A DNA stretch of 32,000 bases, taken from Nanoarchaeum equitans Kin4-M (GTDB lineage: Archaea > Nanobdellota > Nanobdellia > Nanobdellales > Nanoarchaeaceae). Positions 966-30,798 of the stretch are shown one piece after another; within the stretch, counting starts at the first letter, position 1, and the number at the start of each line of letters is the position of its first letter. The position numbers and the translations under genes are program-made. Below the pieces are notes generated by a model that had not been told where the DNA came from, ran no database searches, and was given only the letters and a program-made list of their open reading frames with translations. The stretch covers positions 330,001 through 362,000 of the forward strand of contig AE017199.1 of assembly GCA_000008085.1 (NCBI GenBank), given 5' to 3'.

Positions 966-1703
966 ATGAAACTTATAGGTACAGGTTGGAAAAGTCCTTC
1001 TTTAATAGATGTGCACAATAAAGTTACTTTTACTCTATGGCTTTGTGGGTGTAATTTGAAATGCCCTTTTTGTCATAACTGGAAAATAGCCGAAAAAATA
1101 GGGTGTGGAGAATTAGATATAAATAGATTGTTAGACGAATTAGATAGTGCTTCTTTATTAATAGATTATTTACATGTTACTGGGGGAGAACCCTTATTGC
1201 AATGGGAACCATTATTGGAATTGTTCAAAACCTCTTACGAAAATTATAATGTGGAAAACAGTTTGAATACTAATTTTACATTAACTATCCCATTAAAGAA
1301 GCATTTGGATTCGGGTTATGTTCACCATGTTGCTACCGATCTAAAAGTGCCCCCAAATGAAATGTATGGGGTAGAAAATTGGAAAGCCTTATGGGAATCC
1401 TATTTGAAAAGCCTTTCTCTAATGAAAGAATATGATATCCCCTTAGAATTAAGAATTCCTGTTTCGAGATTCCCATGGGAAGAAAAGAAACCATACATAG
1501 ACCAAGCACTTAAAGCTTTAGGAGACGCAAACTTCTATGTAATAATAAACCCATTATTGAATTACCCAGTTGTAAATCCTAGAAACAAAGAATGGTGTGA
1601 CAAGCATTGTTCTCCTCAAAAAGAAGAATTAAATATAATAAAAGACTATTTAGAGAGCCAAGGAATAAAAGTTTATCTAAAAGGGCACAGCGAATTAATA
1701 TAG
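966..1703 (+). CDS. radical SAM activating-enzyme family protein (PflA/NrdG-like)
   Basis: 245 aa. CGCNLKCPFCHN contains the CX3CX2C radical-SAM cluster motif near the N-terminus, followed by a GGEPLL SAM-binding motif. Size and layout match organic-radical activases. Confidence 0.7.
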   Translation: MKLIGTGWKSPSLIDVHNKVTFTLWLCGCNLKCPFCHNWKIAEKIGCGELDINRLLDELDSASLLIDYLHVTGGEPLLQWEPLLELFKTSYENYNVENSLNTNFTLTIPLKKHLDSGYVHHVATDLKVPPNEMYGVENWKALWESYLKSLSLMKEYDIPLELRIPVSRFPWEEKKPYIDQALKALGDANFYVIINPLLNYPVVNPRNKEWCDKHCSPQKEELNIIKDYLESQGIKVYLKGHSELI

Positions 1704-1758
1704 CCGGGGCAGTGGGGTCGAGAACCCCGTATGCTAGACCTGGCTACACCACGGGGGC
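1703..1758 (-). tRNA. tRNA-Glu(CUC) 5' half (split tRNA gene)
   Basis: Minus strand 1758..1719 reads GCCCCCG UG GUGU AGCCAGGUCUA GCAU A CGGGG UUCUCG. That is the acceptor 5' strand, the D arm, the anticodon-stem 5' strand and loop nt 32-37 with anticodon CUC. A 16-nt GC-rich tail ACCCCACUGCCCCGGC (1718..1703) follows instead of a variable loop and T arm. A TTTTTAAA box at 1786..1779 sits exactly 20 nt before G1. Confidence 0.85.
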
Positions 1759-1766
1759 AGTGATAA

Positions 1767-1786
1767 AATTTAAACCCATTTAAAAA
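1767..1786. promoter_or_regulatory. interleaved divergent TATA boxes (mre11 / tRNA-Glu half)
   Basis: Plus-strand AATTTAAA at 1767-1774, then 20 nt, gives a start at 1795 (ATG at 1796). Minus-strand TTTTTAAA at 1786-1779, then 20 nt, gives G1 at 1758. Confidence 0.7.
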
Positions 1787-3861: not shown

Positions 3862-4560
3862 ATGCGCGTAATAGTATTCTTCGTAGAGCCTGAGAAAGTT
3901 GATAACATAGGAGCAATGGCAAGGGTTTGCAAAAACTTTAATGCAGATTTATATTTAATTAACCCAAAAGTAGATAACTACGAAAAAGCCTTTGTTGTAG
4001 CAAAGCATGCCCAAGATTTATTGCAAAAAGCGATAGAGAATAAGCTAAATAGTATAGATGAAGCAAAAGAATTAGTTGATATAAGTGTGGGCACTACAGG
4101 AAAAATAGCTAACGAATACAATGTATTAAGAAGCCCTTTAAAACCATGGGAATTAGCAGAGAGGTTTGCCAATAGCGATATAAAACTTGGTATATTTATT
4201 GGAAGAGAAAGCATAGGTTTAACTAATGAAGAGCTATCAAAAATGGATTTTATTGTTACTATTCCTGCGAATAAAGAATATCCAATACTAAATGCTACCC
4301 ATGCTACAGCAATAATTTTATATGAATTATTCAAACATTCAAAAGAAGGGCATGTTAATTTAGCTTTACCAAAAAAAGAACAAATCGATGTTTTATTAGA
4401 TTATGTGAAGAAAATAATTGATAAACTGCCTCAACCAGATTATAGAAAGGAATATTATTTTATAATAATGAGAAAACTTATTACGCAAGGCATAATAAAT
4501 AGCAGGGAAGCCAATACATTAATTGGGTTTTTTAGATCTATATATGAAAATCTCAAATGA
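3862..4560 (+). CDS. SPOUT-class RNA 2'-O-methyltransferase (SpoU/TrmH, TrmJ/LasT-like)
   Basis: 232 aa. VFFVEPEKVDNIGAMARVCKNFNADLYLINPK (SpoU motif 1), IFIGRESIGLTNEEL (motif 2), and LNATHATAIILYEL (motif 3, knot). Confidence 0.75.
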   Translation: MRVIVFFVEPEKVDNIGAMARVCKNFNADLYLINPKVDNYEKAFVVAKHAQDLLQKAIENKLNSIDEAKELVDISVGTTGKIANEYNVLRSPLKPWELAERFANSDIKLGIFIGRESIGLTNEELSKMDFIVTIPANKEYPILNATHATAIILYELFKHSKEGHVNLALPKKEQIDVLLDYVKKIIDKLPQPDYRKEYYFIIMRKLITQGIINSREANTLIGFFRSIYENLK

Positions 4561-4606
4561 AGATATTGTGTGCTTCTGAACTAATGATGAAAGGAGCAGG
4601 AACAGA
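4557..4606 (+). ncRNA. C/D box sRNA (sRNA-1)
   Basis: AUGAAGA-UAUUGUGUGCUU-CUGA-ACUA-AUGAUGA-AAGGAGCAGGAA-CAGA. This is C, a 12-nt guide, D', a 4-nt spacer, C', a 12-nt guide, and D, 50 nt in total. The C box contains the UGA stop codon (4558-4560) of the upstream gene. The C(U5>A)/D(U2>A) change is compensatory at the K-turn U:U position. Confidence 0.65.
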
Positions 4607-4614
4607 TTATTAAA
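4607..4614 (+). promoter_or_regulatory. TATA box for the 4635 gene
   Basis: TTATTAAA followed by 20 nt, then the A of ATG at 4635. The box abuts the D box of sRNA-1. Confidence 0.6.
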
Positions 4615-4634: not shown

Positions 4635-4991
4635 ATGAAAGCAGCAGTAGCGTGTTACGAAAGCAATGGTGTGTATAAGCTATTCCCAACAGAGTTTGGC
4701 CATGCCCCCATATTTGTAATAGTAGACCTCGATACAAAACAAATAGTAGAAAAAAGGGAAAACCCCTATAAGGGAGAAGAATCCAAAGATAAATTCAAAA
4801 AATTAGCCGAATATTTGAAAGATGTGGATTATTTTGTAGGCAAACAATTTGGTACATCTGTTTTGAAATTAAGGCCAATGTTTAACAAAATCCCCGTAGT
4901 AGTTAATGCCGAAACCTTAGAAGAAGCAATAGAAAAACTATCTAATTCGAAAGATAAGCTAAATTTAGACAGCTATGTTATTTTGTTGTAG
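4635..4991 (+). CDS. NifB/NifX-family (dinitrogenase FeMo-cofactor-binding fold, COG1433-like) protein
   Basis: 118 aa. MKAAVA...FGHAPIFVIVDL...NP...VDYFVGKQFG...IPVV matches the pattern of small archaeal NifX-like proteins recalled from memory. Confidence 0.55.
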   Translation: MKAAVACYESNGVYKLFPTEFGHAPIFVIVDLDTKQIVEKRENPYKGEESKDKFKKLAEYLKDVDYFVGKQFGTSVLKLRPMFNKIPVVVNAETLEEAIEKLSNSKDKLNLDSYVILL

Positions 4992-5378: not shown

Positions 5379-7457
5379 ATCCATGGCATAGAGCCAAGAG
5401 AATACCAAAAAAGAATATTCGAGACCGCTAAAAACTATAATACATTAATAGTATTGCCAACAGGTTTAGGGAAAACAGTAATAGCGTTAATGCTAATAGA
5501 GTATTTCAAACAAAAATACCCGGATAAAAAGATATTGTTTTTAGCTCCTACAAAACCTTTGGTTAATCAACATGTGGAATTTTTAAGAAAATATAGCGAT
5601 ATAGATCCAACAAAAATAGTTGGTATAAGTGGGGACATACCAAAAGAAAAAAGGGTAAAACTTTATAATGCCGATGTTATAGTTGCAACTCCCCAAACCA
5701 TAAAAAATGATTTGGCCAATAACTTAATAGATTTGAACAAATTCTCTTTAATTATATTTGATGAAGCGCATAGGGCTGTGGGTAACTATTCTTACACATA
5801 TATAGCTCGCAATTTCAATAATAGAATTGTAGGCCTAACCGCTTCCCCTGGGAGCGATGAAGAGAAAATAAAAGAAATAATAGAAAACTTAAAAATAGAG
5901 AGAATAGAATATAGAAACGAAGATTCCTCAGATGTTAGACCTTATGTAAAGAAAAAGGTTATAAAATATATCGGGGTAGCATTAGACAAAGAAATACTTA
6001 CAGCTTCTTCTCTTATACAAGAGGCGATAGAGATAAGGAAGAAAAAATTGGAAGAGCTTGGCATATTAAAGAGAAAAATAAAGGATATTGCTTTATTAAT
6101 GGAAGAGCTAAAGAAGAAACAAGCTTATAGCTTAGATGAAAGGGTAAAAGATGCTATAATTATTGGTTCTGAAATTTTAATTTTATTCCATGCTTTGAAA
6201 ACATTGCAAACCCAAACATATAGAGCATTTCTTAAATTTTGTGAAAACCTCTTCGAAAATGCCCAGAAATTAAGTGAAAAAAATGTTGCCGAAGATGTAA
6301 GGCTAAAAAAAGCATATTTGTATGTTAAAGATTTAGTTAAACAAGGCAAAGAACATCCAAAAATTAATGCTTTGTTAGAGATAATAAAAAAGAATAAAGA
6401 CAAAAAAATTATAGTTTTTGCCCAGCTTACAGATACGGTAATGCAGATAACTGAATTATTGAACAAAAATAACATAAAAGCTGTAGCGTTTACTGGTAAA
6501 AAGCTTATGACTCAAAAAAAGCAAATAGAGACTTTAGACAAATTTAGGGCTAATATATATAATGTTTTGGTTGCTTCTTCTGTTGCAGAAGAAGGGTTAG
6601 ATATACCGAAGGTGGATTTAGTAATATTTTATGAACCTATTCCCTCTGCAATTAGGGCCATACAAAGAAAAGGTAGAACCGGCAGGTTAAACTACGGTGA
6701 AGTAATAATATTGTATTCTAAAAATACTTTAGATGAAAAAGCTCTTTGGGCCTCTATTAGAAAAGAAAAAAAGATGTATGAAATATTGGAAAAACTTTCT
6801 AAAGAGGTTAAACCAAAAAAAGAGCAAACTTTAAACGAAGTATTGGGATTTAGATATAAAATTATTGCTGACCAAAGAGAACAAAATTCTTTAGTAGTAG
6901 ATGCGTTAAAAAAATTAGGTATAGGGGTTAAAATTGAGAATTTAGAGGTTGGCGATTATATAGTTGGCGATGTAGTAATAGAAAGAAAAACTATTAGGGA
7001 TTTCGTTGATTCTATAATAGATAATAGGATATGGGATCAAATGAATAAATTATCGCAATTAGATAAAAAACTTTTAATATTGGAAGGAGAAGAAGACCCA
7101 TATTTTATTAGAGATGTTAACCCCAATGTTATAAGGAGTGTTATATTAACTTTATCCTTAAAAGGGATACCAATAATAAGAACTAAAAACCCTATTGATA
7201 CAGCTTATTACATTAAAGTTTTGTCTGAAAAACAAAATAAACTGCCACAAATACCTAAAATAAAGAAAAAAGAACTAACTCCTAAAGAGGTTTTAGCTTC
7301 TTTTCCTGGTATTGGTGAAAAGAGTGCCGAAGAGCTATTAAAAAGATACAAAACTATAAAAAATGTTGTTAATGCTTCTTTATCGGGTTTATCTATTATT
7401 TTGGGGGAAAAGCGTGCTAAGAAGCTTAAAGAATTTTTAGAGAAAGAATATCAGTAG
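5379..7457 (+). CDS. hef: Hef-type helicase-nuclease (SF2 helicase + XPF/Mus81 nuclease + HhH2); start codon unresolved
   Basis: Helicase motifs LPTGLGKT, FDEAH, TASPG, QRKGRTGR. Nuclease motif GDYIVGDVVIERKTIRDFVDSI (GDXnERKX3D). C-terminal FPGIGEKSAEELL helix-hairpin-helix. The track starts at TTG 5454, but the in-frame upstream sequence IEPREYQKRIFETAKNYNTLIV (Q-motif region) is open back to 5376. Confidence 0.85.
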   Translation: MHGIEPREYQKRIFETAKNYNTLIVLPTGLGKTVIALMLIEYFKQKYPDKKILFLAPTKPLVNQHVEFLRKYSDIDPTKIVGISGDIPKEKRVKLYNADVIVATPQTIKNDLANNLIDLNKFSLIIFDEAHRAVGNYSYTYIARNFNNRIVGLTASPGSDEEKIKEIIENLKIERIEYRNEDSSDVRPYVKKKVIKYIGVALDKEILTASSLIQEAIEIRKKKLEELGILKRKIKDIALLMEELKKKQAYSLDERVKDAIIIGSEILILFHALKTLQTQTYRAFLKFCENLFENAQKLSEKNVAEDVRLKKAYLYVKDLVKQGKEHPKINALLEIIKKNKDKKIIVFAQLTDTVMQITELLNKNNIKAVAFTGKKLMTQKKQIETLDKFRANIYNVLVASSVAEEGLDIPKVDLVIFYEPIPSAIRAIQRKGRTGRLNYGEVIILYSKNTLDEKALWASIRKEKKMYEILEKLSKEVKPKKEQTLNEVLGFRYKIIADQREQNSLVVDALKKLGIGVKIENLEVGDYIVGDVVIERKTIRDFVDSIIDNRIWDQMNKLSQLDKKLLILEGEEDPYFIRDVNPNVIRSVILTLSLKGIPIIRTKNPIDTAYYIKVLSEKQNKLPQIPKIKKKELTPKEVLASFPGIGEKSAEELLKRYKTIKNVVNASLSGLSIILGEKRAKKLKEFLEKEYQ

Positions 7458-7500
7458 TGCCCATCACTCTTCATCTCTCTGGGTAGCCGTATGTCATCAT
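7451..7500 (-). ncRNA. C/D box sRNA (sRNA-2), D' guide complementary to the 16S rRNA 3' domain
   Basis: Minus strand: AUGAUGA-CAUACGGCUACC-CAGA-GAG-AUGAAGA-GUGAUGGGCACUA-CUGA, 50 nt. The C box contains the rps5 stop codon. The D box overlaps the last sense codon of hef. The first guide is complementary to GGUAGCCGUA, the conserved archaeal 16S sequence just upstream of helix 45. Confidence 0.8.
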
Positions 7501-8192
7501 TTGTTTATTATAGAGCCTTCTGTATAGCCAGAGAACTTTATAAAGAATGGTTGTACTCTTACATTCGATAGCTTCTTCAAAGCATCGAATACTGCAAATA
7601 CATGGTTCATTTTAGTTTTGGTCTTACCGAAAGATCTAACCCAAACATCTTTTATTCCGGCCAATCTAAATATTTTCTTTATCTCATCGTCTGCAACTAT
7701 TCCTACTCCCTTTGGAGCTGGTTTTAATATAACTCTAACACTTCCGGATTTGCCCTCAACTTGGTATGGAATAGAATGGGGAGCCCCACAAGCACATTCC
7801 CAAGAACCACAACCTCTCGCAACTTTTATTATATTTAGTTTAGCTCTATTAATAGCTTTTTCTCTAGCTATCAATAAATCGGAGCTTCTTCCTAATCCAA
7901 CTCCAACATGGCCATCTTTGTCTCCTACTATGGCAATAACTTCGTATCTCGTTTTATTACCTTCAGCAGTTTTCTTTTGTGCCATTCTATATGGTTTTTT
8001 AGACCTAAACTTACCTCTTATTATACGCCATTTCATAAATTCAACCTCTAAATTTGGTAACAATACATCAACTATCTCTGGTTCTCTAATAACATATTTA
8101 TTAGATAATATCTCATCTATATTTGTTATTTTACCCTCTTTGACTAACCTGCCTAACTTGGTTTTAGGTTGCCATTCCTCTATATTAACCAT
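7497..8192 (-). CDS. rps5: 30S ribosomal protein uS5
   Basis: 231 aa. VIAIVGDKDGHVGVGLGRSSDLLIAREKAINRAKLNII and the C-terminal GIVADDEIKKIFRLAGIKDVW are typical of S5. GTTTTAAA at 8221-8214 gives a start 1 nt before the ATG. Confidence 0.9.
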   Translation of the reverse strand: MVNIEEWQPKTKLGRLVKEGKITNIDEILSNKYVIREPEIVDVLLPNLEVEFMKWRIIRGKFRSKKPYRMAQKKTAEGNKTRYEVIAIVGDKDGHVGVGLGRSSDLLIAREKAINRAKLNIIKVARGCGSWECACGAPHSIPYQVEGKSGSVRVILKPAPKGVGIVADDEIKKIFRLAGIKDVWVRSFGKTKTKMNHVFAVFDALKKLSNVRVQPFFIKFSGYTEGSIINK

Positions 8193-9374: not shown

Positions 9375-9390
9375 TTTAAAAGCCTTTAAA
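9375..9390. promoter_or_regulatory. back-to-back divergent TATA boxes (tyrS / H/ACA RNA)
   Basis: Minus-strand CTTTTAAA at 9382-9375 gives a start at 9354 (ATG 9353). Plus-strand CCTTTAAA at 9383-9390 gives a start at G9411. Confidence 0.7.
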
Positions 9391-9410: not shown

Positions 9411-9567
9411 GGCAAGGGACCGGCGGCCGAGAGGTGTAACCTATGACTGTCCCGTCAGGGATAGGATGAATAGGTCCCACCGCGGCCGTCGACAGCCCGG
9501 CACGAGAGTCCCCGAGTGAGAAGGCTATGGCCGTCGATGAGCTCGGGTGTTAGTGTGCGGGCAACAC
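9411..9567 (+). ncRNA. two-hairpin box H/ACA guide sRNA
   Basis: GC-rich island. Hairpin 1: a 9-bp lower stem (9421-9429/9483-9491), a pocket (AGAGGUGUAA / UCCCACCG), a 5-bp upper stem (9440-44/9470-74), a K-turn (GA 9445-46 opposite the GAU bulge plus GA at 9465-69), a 7-bp stem with a GUCA loop, and ACA at 9492-94. Hairpin 2: a lower stem (9495-9503/9555-9562), a pocket (GAGAGU / UGUUAGU), an upper stem (9511-16/9542-47), an identical GAU-GA K-turn (9536-40 opposite GA 9518-19), an apical stem with a UAUG loop, and ACA at 9564-66. Both ACA boxes lie 14-16 nt from the top of the 3' pocket strand. A T5 run follows. Confidence 0.8.
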
Positions 9568-9575
9568 TTTTTAAA
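9568..9575 (+). promoter_or_regulatory. TTTTTAAA: oligo-T terminator of the H/ACA RNA doubling as the TATA box of rpl41e
   Basis: T5 immediately follows the second ACA box. The same octamer lies 20 nt before 9596, and the ATG is at 9597. Confidence 0.6.
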
Positions 9576-9596
9576 TGTTATCTTTCTTTTTCCCCA

Positions 9597-9704
9597 ATGA
9601 AGAGATCTAGTAGGAGATGGAAAAAATATATGCAATCTCGATGGAAATGGCAGAAAAAGAGAATGAGGAGAGAAAAACGTAAAAGGAGGATGATGAGGAG
9701 ATGA
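9597..9704 (+). CDS. rpl41e: 50S ribosomal protein eL41
   Basis: 35 aa: MKRSSRRWKKYMQSRWKWQKKRMRREKRKRRMMRR. The W-x-KKRMRR-x-KRKRR core is the eL41 signature. It begins at Met28 of the 9516..9704 track ORF, whose upstream part lies inside the H/ACA RNA. Confidence 0.8.
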   Translation: MKRSSRRWKKYMQSRWKWQKKRMRREKRKRRMMRR

Positions 9705-13169: not shown

Positions 13170-13604
13170 TTATTGTTTAAACACTTGCATAACAACAGGT
13201 ACACCTAAATCCCACACTATAACATTGGCCCCAGGTTCTACTTTGTCTTTTAATTCCTCTGGTACTTTAGCTTCTATAACTTCGTATGTTTCCAAATCCA
13301 TTACTTGTGCTACTACTTCTTCTACTTCTCCTTGTGGAGAAGGTACTTTCCTTTTTTCTGTTGCTATTATTTGGCCTTTAATTTTTTTGATTTGGGGCAC
13401 TTTAATAGGGTCGCTTGTTGGTTTAATTATTACTATTTTCTTACCGCTTGTAACGCTAATTGCCTCTATTCTTGCTTTTGCAGACCCATGCTTTCCTGGT
13501 TTGGATGTTTCTATAGAAACTATTTTATATACTTCTCCATCTTGTTCGTTGTATATATAATTGCCAACCTTTAATTCTCCAACCTTTTTAACAATAACTT
13601 CCAT
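13170..13604 (-). CDS. eif5a: translation initiation factor aIF5A
   Basis: Hypusine-site loop TSKPGKHGSAKARIE. TTTTTAAA at 13632-13625 places the transcription start on the second ATG (13604, MEVIVKK...). The track ORF starts 3 codons earlier, at 13613. Confidence 0.9.
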   Translation of the reverse strand: MEVIVKKVGELKVGNYIYNEQDGEVYKIVSIETSKPGKHGSAKARIEAISVTSGKKIVIIKPTSDPIKVPQIKKIKGQIIATEKRKVPSPQGEVEEVVAQVMDLETYEVIEAKVPEELKDKVEPGANVIVWDLGVPVVMQVFKQ

Positions 13605-14637: not shown

Positions 14638-15807
14638 TGGGTTTTTAGTATTATCACATTCAGGGTTTTTACCCCTCTCGCATACACCCATATCTTTATA
14701 ATATTCGGTTCTATCGCAATTTGGGGGTAAATATTGTACACCTTCAGATTCTTTTCTCATATGCCACTCTATTTGGTATTCTATATATCTTTCTCTTAAT
14801 GGGGGGTCGTTTCTTTGATTCCATTCCATTAAAATTCTTTTTATTTCGTCCCAGCTATAGCCTTTTCTTCTAAAATAGTTTATTAGAATAAATACAGCTC
14901 TCTTTCTCCCATCTTTTAACCCTTTTAATATGTTTTGTATGCATGGGGCTATTCTATTAGTTTTCGGTTTTCTTTTGATCTCTTTTATTTTTTCCCATTT
15001 TTCTTCTTTTTGGTATTTGTCAAAAACCAAAGCGTCTTTTATAAATTGCTCTAAGCTTTTGCTTTCTTTTACATTAAAATCCCAATCTACTGGTTCTACT
15101 AATTCGGGAGAAGCTAAGAGAGGTTCGAAATTTGATATGTCTTTTACAGGAATCGATGCTAAGCCCGTTTTTTCATTTAAAGAATAAGGCGCCCTATATA
15201 AATGTCTTTTACTTATTACAACCATATCAACTATAAAATTCTCTATTAATTCATTAGCATCTTTGCCAGTTTCCTCTAACAAAGGTTCCAAATCATTTTT
15301 AATTTTTTCTTTAACTCTTGTAATGGTATAATACAATAATAATCTGGCCAAATCCGGAAACCTATCTTTTAGTTCTATTAACTCTCCATCAAATACTATC
15401 TCTTTAGGGAAAGCTTCCCATGGCACTATTATGTGGAACCCCTTATTACCAGAATATTTTATAAAATGGGGAATTCCCTTGTTTGTTAGATATATATCTA
15501 TTTGTTTAGCAATTACCTTCGATATATCAATATCTTGTGTATCTATATCGAAAACCAAATCCCAACCAATTCTTAATTCTTTTTCGTTCGCTTTTCCTAA
15601 TAAAGATGGGTCTTTCCATCTTTCTAAAGATATATGGAATGACATTGCCCCTTTTTTTACTTCTAACAATAAATCTTGCTCGTATTCTATTATTACAGGC
15701 CTCCTAAAGAAGGATTTGTTTTTTTGATATAAAATCCCAACCTCTCTATTTTCGAAAAATTTTATTATATAAGGGGCAACTTTTTTGTAATATTCTATTC
15801 TATCCAA
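14626..15807 (-). CDS. DNA primase, PriS catalytic domain fused to a PriL-CTD-like Fe-S domain
   Basis: AEP motifs DLVFDIDTQD and SGNKGFHIIVPW in the N-terminal ~260 aa. The C-terminal ~120 aa carries APCIQNILKGLKDGRKRAVFILINYF plus Cys in NCD, VCE and PEC, giving four candidate cluster ligands. The TTG start overlaps the rpl21e 3' end by 8 nt. Confidence 0.8.
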   Translation of the reverse strand: MDRIEYYKKVAPYIIKFFENREVGILYQKNKSFFRRPVIIEYEQDLLLEVKKGAMSFHISLERWKDPSLLGKANEKELRIGWDLVFDIDTQDIDISKVIAKQIDIYLTNKGIPHFIKYSGNKGFHIIVPWEAFPKEIVFDGELIELKDRFPDLARLLLYYTITRVKEKIKNDLEPLLEETGKDANELIENFIVDMVVISKRHLYRAPYSLNEKTGLASIPVKDISNFEPLLASPELVEPVDWDFNVKESKSLEQFIKDALVFDKYQKEEKWEKIKEIKRKPKTNRIAPCIQNILKGLKDGRKRAVFILINYFRRKGYSWDEIKRILMEWNQRNDPPLRERYIEYQIEWHMRKESEGVQYLPPNCDRTEYYKDMGVCERGKNPECDNTKNPLSF

Positions 15808-16096
15808 CTTTCTTTAGATGGGCTGGATGTACTATAAGTAATTTCTTTTCCCCATTGAATTCTAATTCTACTTCATAGCAATTGCCTCTTTTTCCAACAA
15901 CTGTACCAACTAATCCATGGTATCTAGGATGGGGCATCCCATAATGCCAAGAAGGCTCTATAACTATAGCTACTTTGTCATTATTGTTAAACTTTTGCAA
16001 TATCCTAGTTATAGTAAGTTTGCCCCTTTGCCTAGGATGTTTAGAAAGTTTATCTCTTGTTTTTCTTCTAAAGCCTTTGCCCTTTCTATCAACCAT
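15800..16096 (-). CDS. rpl21e: 50S ribosomal protein eL21
   Basis: 98 aa from Met73 of the track ORF: MVDRKGKGFRRKTRDKLSKHPRQRGKLTITRILQKF...PHPRYHGLVGTVVGKRG, a typical L21e. TTTATAAA at 16125-16118 gives a start at 16097. Confidence 0.9.
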   Translation of the reverse strand: MVDRKGKGFRRKTRDKLSKHPRQRGKLTITRILQKFNNNDKVAIVIEPSWHYGMPHPRYHGLVGTVVGKRGNCYEVELEFNGEKKLLIVHPAHLKKVG

Positions 16097-16102
16097 TGGA
16101 TA

Positions 16103-16125
16103 GCTATTAATAGACTCTTTATAAA
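16103..16125. promoter_or_regulatory. interleaved divergent TATA boxes (nth / rpl21e)
   Basis: Minus-strand TTTATAAA at 16125-16118 gives 16097. A weaker plus-strand GCTATTAA at 16103-16110 gives 16131, the second ATG of nth. Confidence 0.5.
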
Positions 16126-16763
16126 TGCAAATGCAGATTGAAGAGCAATTAAAGATTATAGAAGATTTGGTTAAAAAATTAAATGATAGGTTAGCAGTTC
16201 CATATATATGGGAGAAAACTAAAGACCCTTTTTGGGCTTTGATCGCGACAGTTCTTTCTATAAGAACCAGGGAAGAACAAACAATTAGAGCTTCTTTAAA
16301 TTTATATAACAAATATAAAGATTATAAAAATTTGGCTAAAGCACCAATAGAGGAAATAGAAGATTTAATAAAAAATGTTGGATTGTATAAGCAGAAAGCA
16401 AAATGGATTAAAACCATAGCTCAAAGATGGGATTATAATAAAAAATGTGACGAAAGCTTTATAAGGAATTTACCTGGGGTAGGAAGAAAAGTTGGCAATG
16501 TTTATCTTAATTTAGTATGCAACAAACCCTATATAGCGGTTGATGTGCATGTCCATAGGATAGCCAATAGATTAGGTTGGGTAAAAACCAAAACCCCCGA
16601 GGAAACGGAAAAACAGTTATACAAAATAATACCCAAAGAGTATTGGCCCAAACTAAATCATATGCTTGTTTTGTTTGGGCGAAATATATGTTTACCTTCA
16701 AAGCCTAAATGTGATATTTGTCCATTAGATTGTCCCTATAAATACAATAAAAATAAACCTTGA
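16125..16763 (+). CDS. nth: endonuclease III (HhH-GPD DNA glycosylase/AP lyase)
   Basis: DPFWALIATVLSIRT, the HhH motif LPGVGRKVGNVYL, and a C-terminal four-Cys cluster CLPSKPKCDICPLDC. The start is ATG 16125 or ATG 16131; promoter spacing favours the latter. Confidence 0.85.
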   Translation: MQMQIEEQLKIIEDLVKKLNDRLAVPYIWEKTKDPFWALIATVLSIRTREEQTIRASLNLYNKYKDYKNLAKAPIEEIEDLIKNVGLYKQKAKWIKTIAQRWDYNKKCDESFIRNLPGVGRKVGNVYLNLVCNKPYIAVDVHVHRIANRLGWVKTKTPEETEKQLYKIIPKEYWPKLNHMLVLFGRNICLPSKPKCDICPLDCPYKYNKNKP

Positions 16764-17639: not shown

Positions 17640-17777
17640 ATGCCAATATATGTTTGCTTTAATTGTGGGAGGGAAATAAAAATAGAAGGCAAACCAAGAT
17701 CGAGATGCCCATATTGTAATTCTACACTATTGTTCAAAAAACCCCCAAGGTTAACTAAACATCTAAAAGCTAGGTAA
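17640..17777 (+). CDS. rpoP: DNA-directed RNA polymerase subunit Rpo12 (RpoP)
   Basis: 45 aa, not in the ORF track: MPIYVCFNCGREIKIEGKPRSRCPYCNSTLLFKKPPRLTKHLKAR. It has a C4 zinc ribbon (CxxC...CxxC) followed by the basic tail typical of RpoP. Its stop codon shares nt 17777 with the 3' end of the convergent tRNA-Thr. Confidence 0.8.
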   Translation: MPIYVCFNCGREIKIEGKPRSRCPYCNSTLLFKKPPRLTKHLKAR

Positions 17778-17848
17778 GCCGCCGGCGGGATTCGAACCCG
17801 CGACCTCCGCCTTACCAGGGCGGCGCTCTTCCGCTGAGCTACGGCGGC
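17777..17848 (-). tRNA. tRNA-Thr(GGU)
   Basis: Minus strand: GCCGCCG UA GCUC AGCGGAA GAGC G CCGCC CUGGUAA GGCGG AGGUC GCGGG UUCGAAU CCCGC CGGCGGC U. This is a full cloverleaf with anticodon GGU and discriminator U, no intron, and no encoded CCA. TTTTTAAA lies exactly 20 nt upstream of G1. Confidence 0.95.
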
Positions 17849-17868
17849 GTAGGAGTATAGATGCAACA

Positions 17869-17884
17869 TTTAAAAATCTTTAAA
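17869..17884. promoter_or_regulatory. back-to-back divergent TATA boxes (tRNA-Thr / AAA+ gene)
   Basis: Minus-strand TTTTTAAA at 17876-17869 gives G1 at 17848. Plus-strand TCTTTAAA at 17877-17884 gives the G of GTG at 17905. Confidence 0.75.
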
Positions 17885-26510: not shown

Positions 26511-26533
26511 TTTTTAAACCAATTATTTATAAG
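26511..26533. promoter_or_regulatory. interleaved divergent TATA boxes (tRNA 3' half / membrane protein)
   Basis: Plus-strand TTTTTAAA at 26511-18 gives G26539. Minus-strand CTTATAAA at 26533-26 gives 26505. Confidence 0.7.
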
Positions 26534-26538
26534 GTTCT

Positions 26539-26598
26539 GGGCAGCCACGGGGCCCGAATTTGGTCCCCGTGACCCCGGTTCGAATCCGGGCGGGGCTA
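26539..26598 (+). tRNA. tRNA 3' half (split tRNA gene); the U72-type acceptor implies an A1:U72 tRNA (Gln or initiator Met candidate)
   Basis: GC-rich leader GGGCAGCCACGGGGCCC (26539-55), then GAAUUUGG, then U-CCCCG-UGAC-CCCGG-UUCGAAU-CCGGG-CGGGGCU-A. That gives an anticodon-stem 3' strand, a variable loop, a complete T arm, an acceptor 3' strand and discriminator A. There is no acceptor 5' strand or D arm upstream. The last 3 nt overlap the stop codon of the convergent gene, and a T-rich run follows. Confidence 0.85.
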
Positions 26599-29134: not shown

Positions 29135-29446
29135 ATGGAAATTATCAAAGAAGAACCAATCACTAATGAAAAAGCCTATCAAATATTGGCTAAACAAAAA
29201 CAATTATCTTATAGAGCAGAAAGAACGAAAAAGTATTTGGAAAAAATCGGTTTTATAAAGAATAGTGACGAAATATTAAAGCAATTGGTTGATTTAGGCA
29301 TAGAGTTGGAAAAAGCGATAATGATTGTAAATACTATGCCAAAAACAAACGATGAAGTAAGGGCTATATTAGAAAAAGATTACACCCCCGAAATAGGCAA
29401 AAAAGTATTAGAAATAATGAAGAAGGCTTTAAGCTCTGAAAAATGA
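29135..29446 (+). CDS. rpoF: DNA-directed RNA polymerase subunit Rpo4 (RpoF)
   Basis: 103 aa from the ATG at 29135. The track ORF starts at TTG 29117, inside the promoter. ITNEKAYQILAK..LSYRAERTKKYLEKI...AIMIVNTMPKTNDEVRAIL fits the Rpb4/RpoF pattern. Confidence 0.7.
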   Translation: MEIIKEEPITNEKAYQILAKQKQLSYRAERTKKYLEKIGFIKNSDEILKQLVDLGIELEKAIMIVNTMPKTNDEVRAILEKDYTPEIGKKVLEIMKKALSSEK

Positions 29447-29466
29447 TGACCCCTGGCAGGGACAGA
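29417..29466 (+). ncRNA. C/D box sRNA (sRNA-3)
   Basis: AUGAAGA-AGGCUUUAAGCU-CUGA-AAA-AUGAUGA-CCCCUGGCAGGGA-CAGA, 50 nt. The first half overlaps the last 10 codons of rpoF. C' contains the rpoF stop codon. The D box ends 1 nt before the stop of the convergent pepA. Box variants are the same as in sRNA-1. Confidence 0.6.
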
Positions 29467-30798
29467 TTATAGCTTTTGAACCAATTTATATAATAACCTA
29501 ACCCCAAACCCCGTTAATCCTTTGTATGCGCTTGGTATTGCCCTATTAGCTATCGCTGGCCCAGCGATATCTAAATGTAGGAATTTTTCTATAGGGCTAA
29601 ACTCTTTCAAAAATAGCCCTCCCTGGATTGCATGCGCTTCTCTCCCATTAGCATTCTTAATATCTGCTACAGCACTTTTTAATAATTCTCTATAACCTTC
29701 ATATAAAGGTAATTCCCATACCAATTCGTAGACTTCCTTTCCCGCTTCAATTGCTTTATTTACTAAATCTTTTTCCCCCATCGCTGCGGCGATTTCGTGG
29801 CCCAAAGCGATTATTTGTCCTCCTGTTAATGTTGAAACCTCTATTATGGCTTTTGGATTATATTTTGCACTATAAGCAATTGCATCTGCCAATGTTAATC
29901 TTCCTTCTGCGTCGGTATTAGTTACTTCAACAGTTTTCCCATTATAAGCCTTTATTATGTCATTAACTTTATAGGATTCTCCTGAAATAACATTTTCTGC
30001 TATAGGTATTAACGCAACTATTGGAATATCTTTTTTGTTTTTAGCTATTGCATATAGCGCCCCAATTACTGCGGCAGAACCGGACATGTCTCCATGCATA
30101 TTATACATATAATCTGTGGGCTTCAACGAATAACCTCCTGTATCAAAGGTTATTGCTTTCCCAACTAAAACAATAGGGTTGTCCTTTAAATTGTATTCTA
30201 AAATAACTAACCTTGGTTTGTATATACTGCCTTTGCCTACATAAACCAATAAGTTTAACCCTTCTCTTATTAAATCGTCGTAATGTAATACTTTTATATT
30301 TACAGGCAATCCCTTAAATATCTCGATTATTTTCTTTTCATATGTTTCAGGATTTAATACATTTGGGGGTTCGTTAGCTAAATCCCTAGCTAAATATTGT
30401 GCTTCCATTAATGTGATATATTCTTTTACCTTCTCTTTGTCATCGCAAATAAATTTTATTATTTTCTCTTGCTTTTCGCTTTTGTATCTATCAAATATAT
30501 AAGATGTAGAAAGAATCCCAATAATGGCTTTATCTTTGCTCTCTATTTCTCTTAAATCTATTATAAATTCTTTGAACGGACTATTTTTTATATATCTTCC
30601 TGCTAAGAAATAGGCTTTCCATTCGTCTTTTACATAAACTATTAGATAATCTCTATCTTTTTTTACAAAAATAGCATTATCTCTTTTAAAGAAATCTTCA
30701 TCAACATTAGCATAGCTTTTTACTGATTCCCTATCTTTAAAGAACTTTACTATCACTCCCCCATCCGCGTGGTCTGTTAAATAAAATTTGGTTGGCAT
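29467..30798 (-). CDS. pepA: leucyl aminopeptidase (M17 family)
   Basis: 443 aa. VGKAITFDTGGYSLKP and NTDAEGRLTLADAIAY active-site motifs. Confidence 0.9.
   Translation of the reverse strand: MPTKFYLTDHADGGVIVKFFKDRESVKSYANVDEDFFKRDNAIFVKKDRDYLIVYVKDEWKAYFLAGRYIKNSPFKEFIIDLREIESKDKAIIGILSTSYIFDRYKSEKQEKIIKFICDDKEKVKEYITLMEAQYLARDLANEPPNVLNPETYEKKIIEIFKGLPVNIKVLHYDDLIREGLNLLVYVGKGSIYKPRLVILEYNLKDNPIVLVGKAITFDTGGYSLKPTDYMYNMHGDMSGSAAVIGALYAIAKNKKDIPIVALIPIAENVISGESYKVNDIIKAYNGKTVEVTNTDAEGRLTLADAIAYSAKYNPKAIIEVSTLTGGQIIALGHEIAAAMGEKDLVNKAIEAGKEVYELVWELPLYEGYRELLKSAVADIKNANGREAHAIQGGLFLKEFSPIEKFLHLDIAGPAIANRAIPSAYKGLTGFGVRLLYKLVQKL

Follow-up and report, generated by a model that had tools for sequence, protein, structure and literature searches.

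Archaea that have RNase P transcribe their tRNA genes with leaders. Nanoarchaeum equitans is the textbook case of an organism lacking this otherwise universal enzyme, and the promoters of its tRNA genes are the reason, which made their description an important finding in 2008 (Randau 2008, Nature 453:120, 'Life without RNase P'). As recounted in PMC10100707, every tRNA gene has a promoter (box A) 26 or 27 nt upstream, transcription begins at +1 (for His, Tyr and iMet at -1), the leaderless tRNAs bear 5'-triphosphates, and N. equitans is without an RNase P gene. By RNA-seq, tRNA leaders were absent, 11 of 11 tRNA halves had defined 5' termini with the starting purine needed for initiation, -1 extensions were seen where position +1 is a pyrimidine, and RNase P RNA was not detected; the RNA had been treated with TAP, with no differential (TEX +/-) design (Randau 2012, PMC3491384). 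The split tRNA genes of this species have also been catalogued (Randau 2005; Chan, Cozen, Lowe 2011, PMC3218864). Leaderless transcription of protein genes is known from Haloferax volcanii, where 72% of mRNAs are leaderless (PMC4983044).

We analyzed a stretch of 32,000 nucleotides (the window), which is NC_005213:330001-362000 of N. equitans Kin4-M; four published sRNAs (Randau 2012 Additional file 2, PMC3491384) match it exactly at genome coordinate minus 330000. Four RNA loci in the window, namely a tRNA-Thr(GGU) gene, the 5' half of tRNA-Glu(CUC), the 3' part of tRNA-Gln(UUG) and an H/ACA box sRNA, have the same spacing (4/4 loci), in which an octamer is followed by 20 nt and then by a G. 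The first-pass annotation had reported this octamer and exactly 20 nt before G17848, G1758 and G26539, and every one of those coordinates and spacings was correct when checked. Its further observation of a 20-nt spacing before G9411 of the H/ACA RNA also held, with CCTTTAAA as the box. The arrangement had been described there 'as published for N. equitans', and rightly so, since Randau 2008 and Randau 2012 concern the same genome and loci.

The sole complete tRNA placed in the window by ARAGORN and Rfam is tRNA-Thr(GGU), on the minus strand at 17777..17848 (Rfam RF00005, 74.9 bits, model positions 1-71). The gene has no encoded CCA, and G17848 is both nucleotide +1 of the tRNA and position 1 of the model. 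Its TATA box (box A), TTTTTAAA, lies on the same strand at 17869..17876 with an A-rich, BRE-like AAAGA as its 5' neighbor, and a 20-nt spacer (17868..17849) separates the box from G17848. Rfam also returned a weak match to Plastid-ycf2 antisense to this tRNA (17776-17848, plus strand; E = 0.061), which is almost certainly spurious.

The 5' half of tRNA-Glu(CUC) is encoded on the minus strand as well. Here the TATA box TTTTTAAA occupies 1779..1786 and is followed by 20 nt and then by G1758, which starts a 40-nt sequence that folds as tRNA positions 1-37 with the anticodon CUC (1758..1719, within a precursor at 1703..1758). A G+C-rich tail, ACCCCACUGCCCCGGC, lies 3' of the mature part. The published start of this half is 331758(-), which is window position 1758, with a precursor of ~56 nt, a mature part of 40 nt and a split at 37/38; its 3' partner is at genome position 487064, beyond the window (PMC3218864 Table 1).

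A third copy of TTTTTAAA, at 26511..26518 on the plus strand, is followed by 20 nt and then by G26539. The RNA downstream had been listed as 'the 3' half' alongside the Glu 5' half, with G26539 treated like a mature 5' end, and both descriptions needed correction. It is the 3' part of tRNA-Gln(UUG), with a junction at 32/33 and a mature start at 356559(+), or window position 26559 (PMC3218864 Table 1). The same table gives ~61 nt for the precursor and 40 nt for its mature part, and the precursor therefore starts ~20 nt earlier, at window position 26539. G26539 is then the primary 5' end, and the predicted transcription start, of a 20-nt leader, GGGCAGCCACGGGGCCCGAA (26539..26558, plus strand), that is spliced off; no tRNA fold defines this base, and its assignment as a 5' end rests on the published transcript data. 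The mature part, nt 33-73 of tRNA-Gln(UUG), spans 26559..26598 on the same strand and reads UUUGGU CCCCG UGAC CCCGG UUCGAAU CCGGG CGGGGCU A. Within it, UUUGGU, 5' of CCCCG, corresponds to positions 33-38 in the anticodon loop of tRNA-Gln(UUG), and the acceptor strand CGGGGCU-A suits Gln (A1-U72) and does not fit the Glu half in the window. The Gln 5' part is at genome position 419223, outside the window (PMC3218864 Table 1). The leader would pair with the tail of this 5' part and is removed by the splicing endonuclease (PMC3218864, PMC3491384). Both parts of split tRNAs in the window thus lie at published coordinates, and each consists of a half cloverleaf and a G+C-rich pairing segment.

One other assignment for the 3' part was considered and rejected. 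As the partner of the Glu 5' half it fails at acceptor pairs 1-72 and 2-71 against GCCCCCG, its leader and the Glu tail pair over merely 6 + 4 bp, and the published table assigns it to Gln. A pattern search for the Gln 5' partner (GCCCCG N30-45 CCCCGTGGCTGCCC) gave 106 matches, all with a G+C content of at least 41%, mostly in high-G+C bacteria and none in N. equitans, which we attribute to chance. Separately, a cis helix can form between CACGGGG of the Gln leader and CCCCGUG at tRNA positions 39-45, with the anticodon loop inside it (26546-26571), and thus the leader duplicates the 5' strand of the anticodon stem. Such a copy would be expected had the split gene derived from a full-length one that carried an intron-like insertion at 32/33.

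The fourth RNA locus is the H/ACA box sRNA, a double hairpin of 159 nt on the plus strand at 9411..9569, which matches exactly the published sequence from 339411. Its TATA box CCTTTAAA, at 9383..9390 on the same strand with AAAAG just 5', differs in 2 of 8 bases from the other three boxes and is followed by 20 nt and then by G9411. The minimum free energy fold (-77.5 kcal/mol, z = -4.7) contains two hairpins, an ACA hinge at 9491-9493, a second ACA near the 3' end and two k-turn bulges, which is the hairpin-ACA-hairpin-ACA architecture of H/ACA RNAs. Against the Rfam family HgcG/Pab40 (RF00064) it scored 42.4 bits, under the gathering threshold of 77 (E = 1.3e-8), and so resembles the family without being a member. 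As with the Gln leader, no tRNA fold defines the 5' end; published transcript data do, and the RNA-seq end at 339411 is window position 9411 (Randau 2012, PMC3491384). This is the single published H/ACA sRNA of N. equitans, and its reported position between NEQ389 (TyrRS) and NEQ392 agrees with the adjoining ORF in the window, which encodes a class I Tyr/Trp-type tRNA synthetase. At its other end, the T5 run that ends the sRNA sits inside an TTTTTAAA octamer 21 nt before ATG 9597 (9568-9599), which starts an ORF of 35 codons, apparently the one listed as 'NEQ392a' in the published table. The H/ACA terminator and the TATA box of the next gene seem to be the same bases.

The shared spacing is supported by the counts in the window. 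TTTTTAAA occurs 10 times on the two strands, below the dinucleotide-shuffle mean of 29, and 3 of these 10 copies lie at one identical offset from three tRNA-type genes. At a rate of ~1.6e-4 per position, the probability of 3/3 at a single fixed offset is ~4e-12. For the looser class TTTAAA/TATAAA, with a background of 0.0038 at a spacer of 20, the probability of 4/4 is ~2e-10; TTTAAA itself occurs 112 times on the two strands of the window. Besides these same four loci, the window has no strong G+C islands (threshold, a 40-nt G+C of 0.675 or more).

Archaeal promoters usually consist of a BRE, a TATA box and an initiator, and the four loci resemble this generic layout. Each has an A/T-rich 8-mer centered ~25 nt before the start, a purine-rich, BRE-like stretch upstream and a pyrimidine-purine initiator, with a pyrimidine at -1 and G at +1 at all four. 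The A-rich stretch immediately 5' of the box reads AAAGA, GAAAA or AAAAG across the RNA loci, and 17 aligned sites with a spacer of 20 yielded the BRE-like consensus aaAaAtTTtTAAA. In the promoters of tRNA-Thr and the Glu 5' half, TTTAAA spans -26..-21.

At all four RNA loci, a protein gene also diverges from the same intergenic region (1769-1786; 9375-9390; 17869-17884; 26513-26531), and in three cases the TATA hexamers of the divergent pair are exactly 10 nt apart. At tRNA-Thr and the H/ACA sRNA the promoters of the two genes are arranged back to back. The Glu 5' half and ORF 1796+, like the Gln 3' part and ORF 26505-, have crossed promoters: each box lies between the box and the start of the other gene, and the starts are 34-38 bp apart.

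The same boxes were found in front of protein genes. TTTAAA or TATAAA precedes 17 of 30 ORF start codons, with a spacer of 20 nt in 12 ORFs and of 21 nt in 5, a count that includes two starts (13604, 29135) reassigned to internal ATGs once the box was known and that falls to 15 of 30 without them. Examples are the starts at 4635+, 5330-, 13141-, 13604-, 13651+, 17905+, 20635-, 24517-, 25436+, 26505-, 27378-, 29135+ and 30845+. The background for a box at a spacer of 20-21 is 0.75% (binomial 9e-29). ORFs spaced in this way need leaderless mRNAs, and therefore transcription would start 21-22 nt after the box; the start implied by the ORFs coincides with the position of nucleotide +1 in the RNA genes, which provides an internal calibration. 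From their sequence, most transcription units in the window are predicted to yield leaderless mRNAs. The 20-nt spacing is consequently the general promoter geometry of this genome and not a tRNA-specific device, and the first-pass annotation, which had treated it as a property of tRNA-type genes, must be revised on this point.

Box position can also pick out true ORF starts, whether ATG, GTG or even internal ATGs, as at 13604 and 29135. A different start problem concerns the ORF at 15800-16312 on the minus strand (170 aa), in which an L21e domain covers residues 77-169 only. This L21e ribosomal protein gene probably begins well past the first TTG. As annotated, the ORF overlaps an HhH-GPD glycosylase ORF on the opposite strand (16125-16763).

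The spacing is not shared by every small RNA in the window. Three C/D box sRNAs, which match the window exactly, are sRNA17 (genome 334552-334611, window 4552-4611, plus strand), sRNA18 (genome 337448-337505, window 7448-7505, minus strand) and sRNA19 (genome start 359412, window 29412-29470, plus strand). None of these three, which are all in the window, has a TATA box at the standard spacing, and they overlap the 3' ends of same-strand ORFs encoding a SpoU methylase, ribosomal protein S5 and an Rpb4-like protein, respectively. Having no box and overlapping ORF 3' ends, these sRNAs probably acquire their 5' ends by processing of the mRNA 3' region, and they serve as a negative control for the spacing rule.

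Searches of the 32-kb window for RNase P components gave no RNA match with Rfam (E <= 1) and no protein family match with Pfam across the 30 ORFs scanned; for the genome as a whole, the lack of the enzyme is taken from the literature. More generally, the promoter geometry, the statistics, the identity of the loci and the lack of RNase P components in the window were computed here, while the 5'-triphosphates, the RNA-seq termini and the genome-wide absence of the enzyme come from published work.

These data lead us to a model in which archaeal TBP/TFB promoters are placed so that initiation falls on the first G of the RNA, making RNase P unnecessary for tRNA-Thr and the Glu 5' half, and we hold this with high confidence. 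The A-rich BRE-like stretch, the box A of the form [T/C][T/C]TTTAAA and the pyrimidine-purine initiator would together form an ordinary TBP/TFB promoter, and we infer from their sequence that TBP and TFB would bind these particular boxes. RNA polymerase would then initiate on the first G of the RNA, 21 nt past the last A of the box. With the promoter start on the first G, the primary 5' end would therefore be the mature 5' end in tRNA-Thr and the Glu(CUC) 5' half, carrying a 5'-triphosphate and no leader. N. equitans would have lost RNase P, an enzyme that leaderless tRNAs would not need. At the Gln(UUG) 3' part, initiation would fall on the first base of the G+C-rich leader, which would find the partner transcript and later be cut off by the splicing endonuclease. 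The H/ACA sRNA would likewise be initiated on its own first base. Since the box-to-start distance is 20-21 nt at most ORFs, the tRNA arrangement would exemplify a design, common to the whole genome, that places the beginning of a gene at its transcription start.

The central proposal of the first-pass annotation, that these 5' ends are made by initiation and not by RNase P, accordingly agrees with the published triphosphates, the leaderless RNA-seq termini and the calibration from ORFs. Its appeal to four independent loci was in part too broad: tRNA-Thr and the Glu 5' half do bear on RNase P, but the Gln 3' part and the H/ACA sRNA do not, because the Gln leader is lost in splicing and H/ACA RNAs are never substrates of the enzyme.

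The alternative that survives best takes this point further. It holds that the spacing is simply the universal archaeal TATA-to-start distance in a genome where nearly all transcription units, those of protein genes among them, begin at the start site, with no specific meaning for tRNA maturation, so that the four loci would not amount to four independent tests of RNase P loss. The 17 of 30 ORF start codons with a box at 20-21 nt fit this reading, as does the fact that the Gln 3' part and the H/ACA sRNA are RNase P substrates in no organism. However, it complements initiation on the first G more than it competes with it, since in tRNA-Thr and the Glu 5' half the predicted start is the structural +1, which is precisely what removes the need for RNase P. 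The arrangement is moreover reported for all N. equitans tRNAs (PMC10100707), including those with -1 extensions (PMC3491384). We therefore regard the universal distance as a possible but less probable account when it is offered in place of the proposed model.

A second alternative is that transcription starts 1-3 nt further upstream, on the A at -2 (tRNA-Thr, H/ACA sRNA) or -3 (Glu), and that a short leader is trimmed by a nuclease other than RNase P. A purine is indeed present at these positions, the ORF spacers of 20 or 21 nt imply that the box alone fixes no single base, and the three C/D sRNAs indicate that 5' processing of other RNAs exists. Sequence by itself thus also allows these starts, but the published 5'-end data exclude them: 5'-triphosphates on mature tRNAs are described (PMC10100707), RNA-seq termini coincide with +1 (PMC3491384), and the H/ACA end is G9411. 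The Gln 3' part, in addition, has no purine in the four bases before G26539. An upstream start with trimming is therefore very improbable.

A/T-rich words such as TTTAAA (112 copies) are common in a genome of 31% G+C, and the octamer might have come to lie near G+C-rich RNA genes by chance. This reading is refuted by the counts, with just 10 copies of TTTTTAAA of which three share an offset and P ~2e-10 for the hexamer class at 4/4 loci, and has a negligible probability.

If initiation on the first G is accepted, its origin may be considered. A box-to-start distance of 20-21 nt is found at 57% of ORFs, the H/ACA sRNA and the tRNA halves. The tRNA arrangement could thus be a by-product of a genome-wide start-on-gene design, and RNase P could have become dispensable because a leaderless architecture already existed, a suggestion that we put forward only tentatively and consider somewhat doubtful. 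If true, it would mean that no special repair after RNase P loss, and no later rearrangement of promoters, was needed.

We also looked for comparable loci in metagenomes. A search with TyrRS yielded 71 loci (626 kb, G+C 27-65%) with no close relatives among them. These loci held few tRNAs (3 in the 71 loci by ARAGORN; 3 in the 149 kb scanned with Rfam), and nhmmer found no homologue of the H/ACA sRNA, the Glu half or the Gln part in them. The box spacer could be read at two tRNAs, which are too few for a comparative test. One is an intron-bearing tRNA on the minus strand of L142 (1146-1245), with TTTAAA 27 nt upstream, which predicts a leader of ~6 nt; the other is a tRNA-Val on the plus strand of L107 (1327-1397), with TTTAAT 21 nt upstream. 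A ~6-nt leader would be expected in an organism with RNase P, and two tRNAs prove nothing.

The closest match to the arrangement seen here is the set of leaderless tRNA genes of N. equitans itself, described by Randau 2008 for the same genome, the same loci and with the same claim. The box A reported there at 26-27 nt upstream corresponds to the TTTAAA at -26..-21 in the window. The finding is therefore already known for this genome and these loci. In comparison with Randau 2008 and Randau 2012, the H/ACA sRNA and the tRNA 3' part are additional examples of the spacing, although both transcripts and their ends have also been published. Our additions are the re-identification of the 3' part (Gln, junction 32/33, with a removed leader) and the recognition that the spacing is common to protein genes. 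Of the 11 published halves of split tRNAs in N. equitans (Randau 2005; Chan, Cozen, Lowe 2011, PMC3218864), two are loci described here, namely the Glu(CUC) 5' half and the Gln(UUG) 3' part, each with a promoter of its own.

The ORFs of the window resemble the leaderless mRNAs of the Haloferax volcanii type, with start codons at the transcription start site. Unlike in archaea that bear RNase P, in N. equitans the RNA genes are leaderless as well. A further comparison is with Nst1, the terrestrial nanoarchaeote from Obsidian Pool (Podar 2013, PMC3655853), which belongs to the same phylum and whose tRNA genes are ~85% identical. Nst1 has RNase P, with three protein subunits and a shortened RNA, and has no split tRNAs (PMC3655853); it follows that leaderless tRNA genes are a trait derived within the lineage of N. 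equitans.
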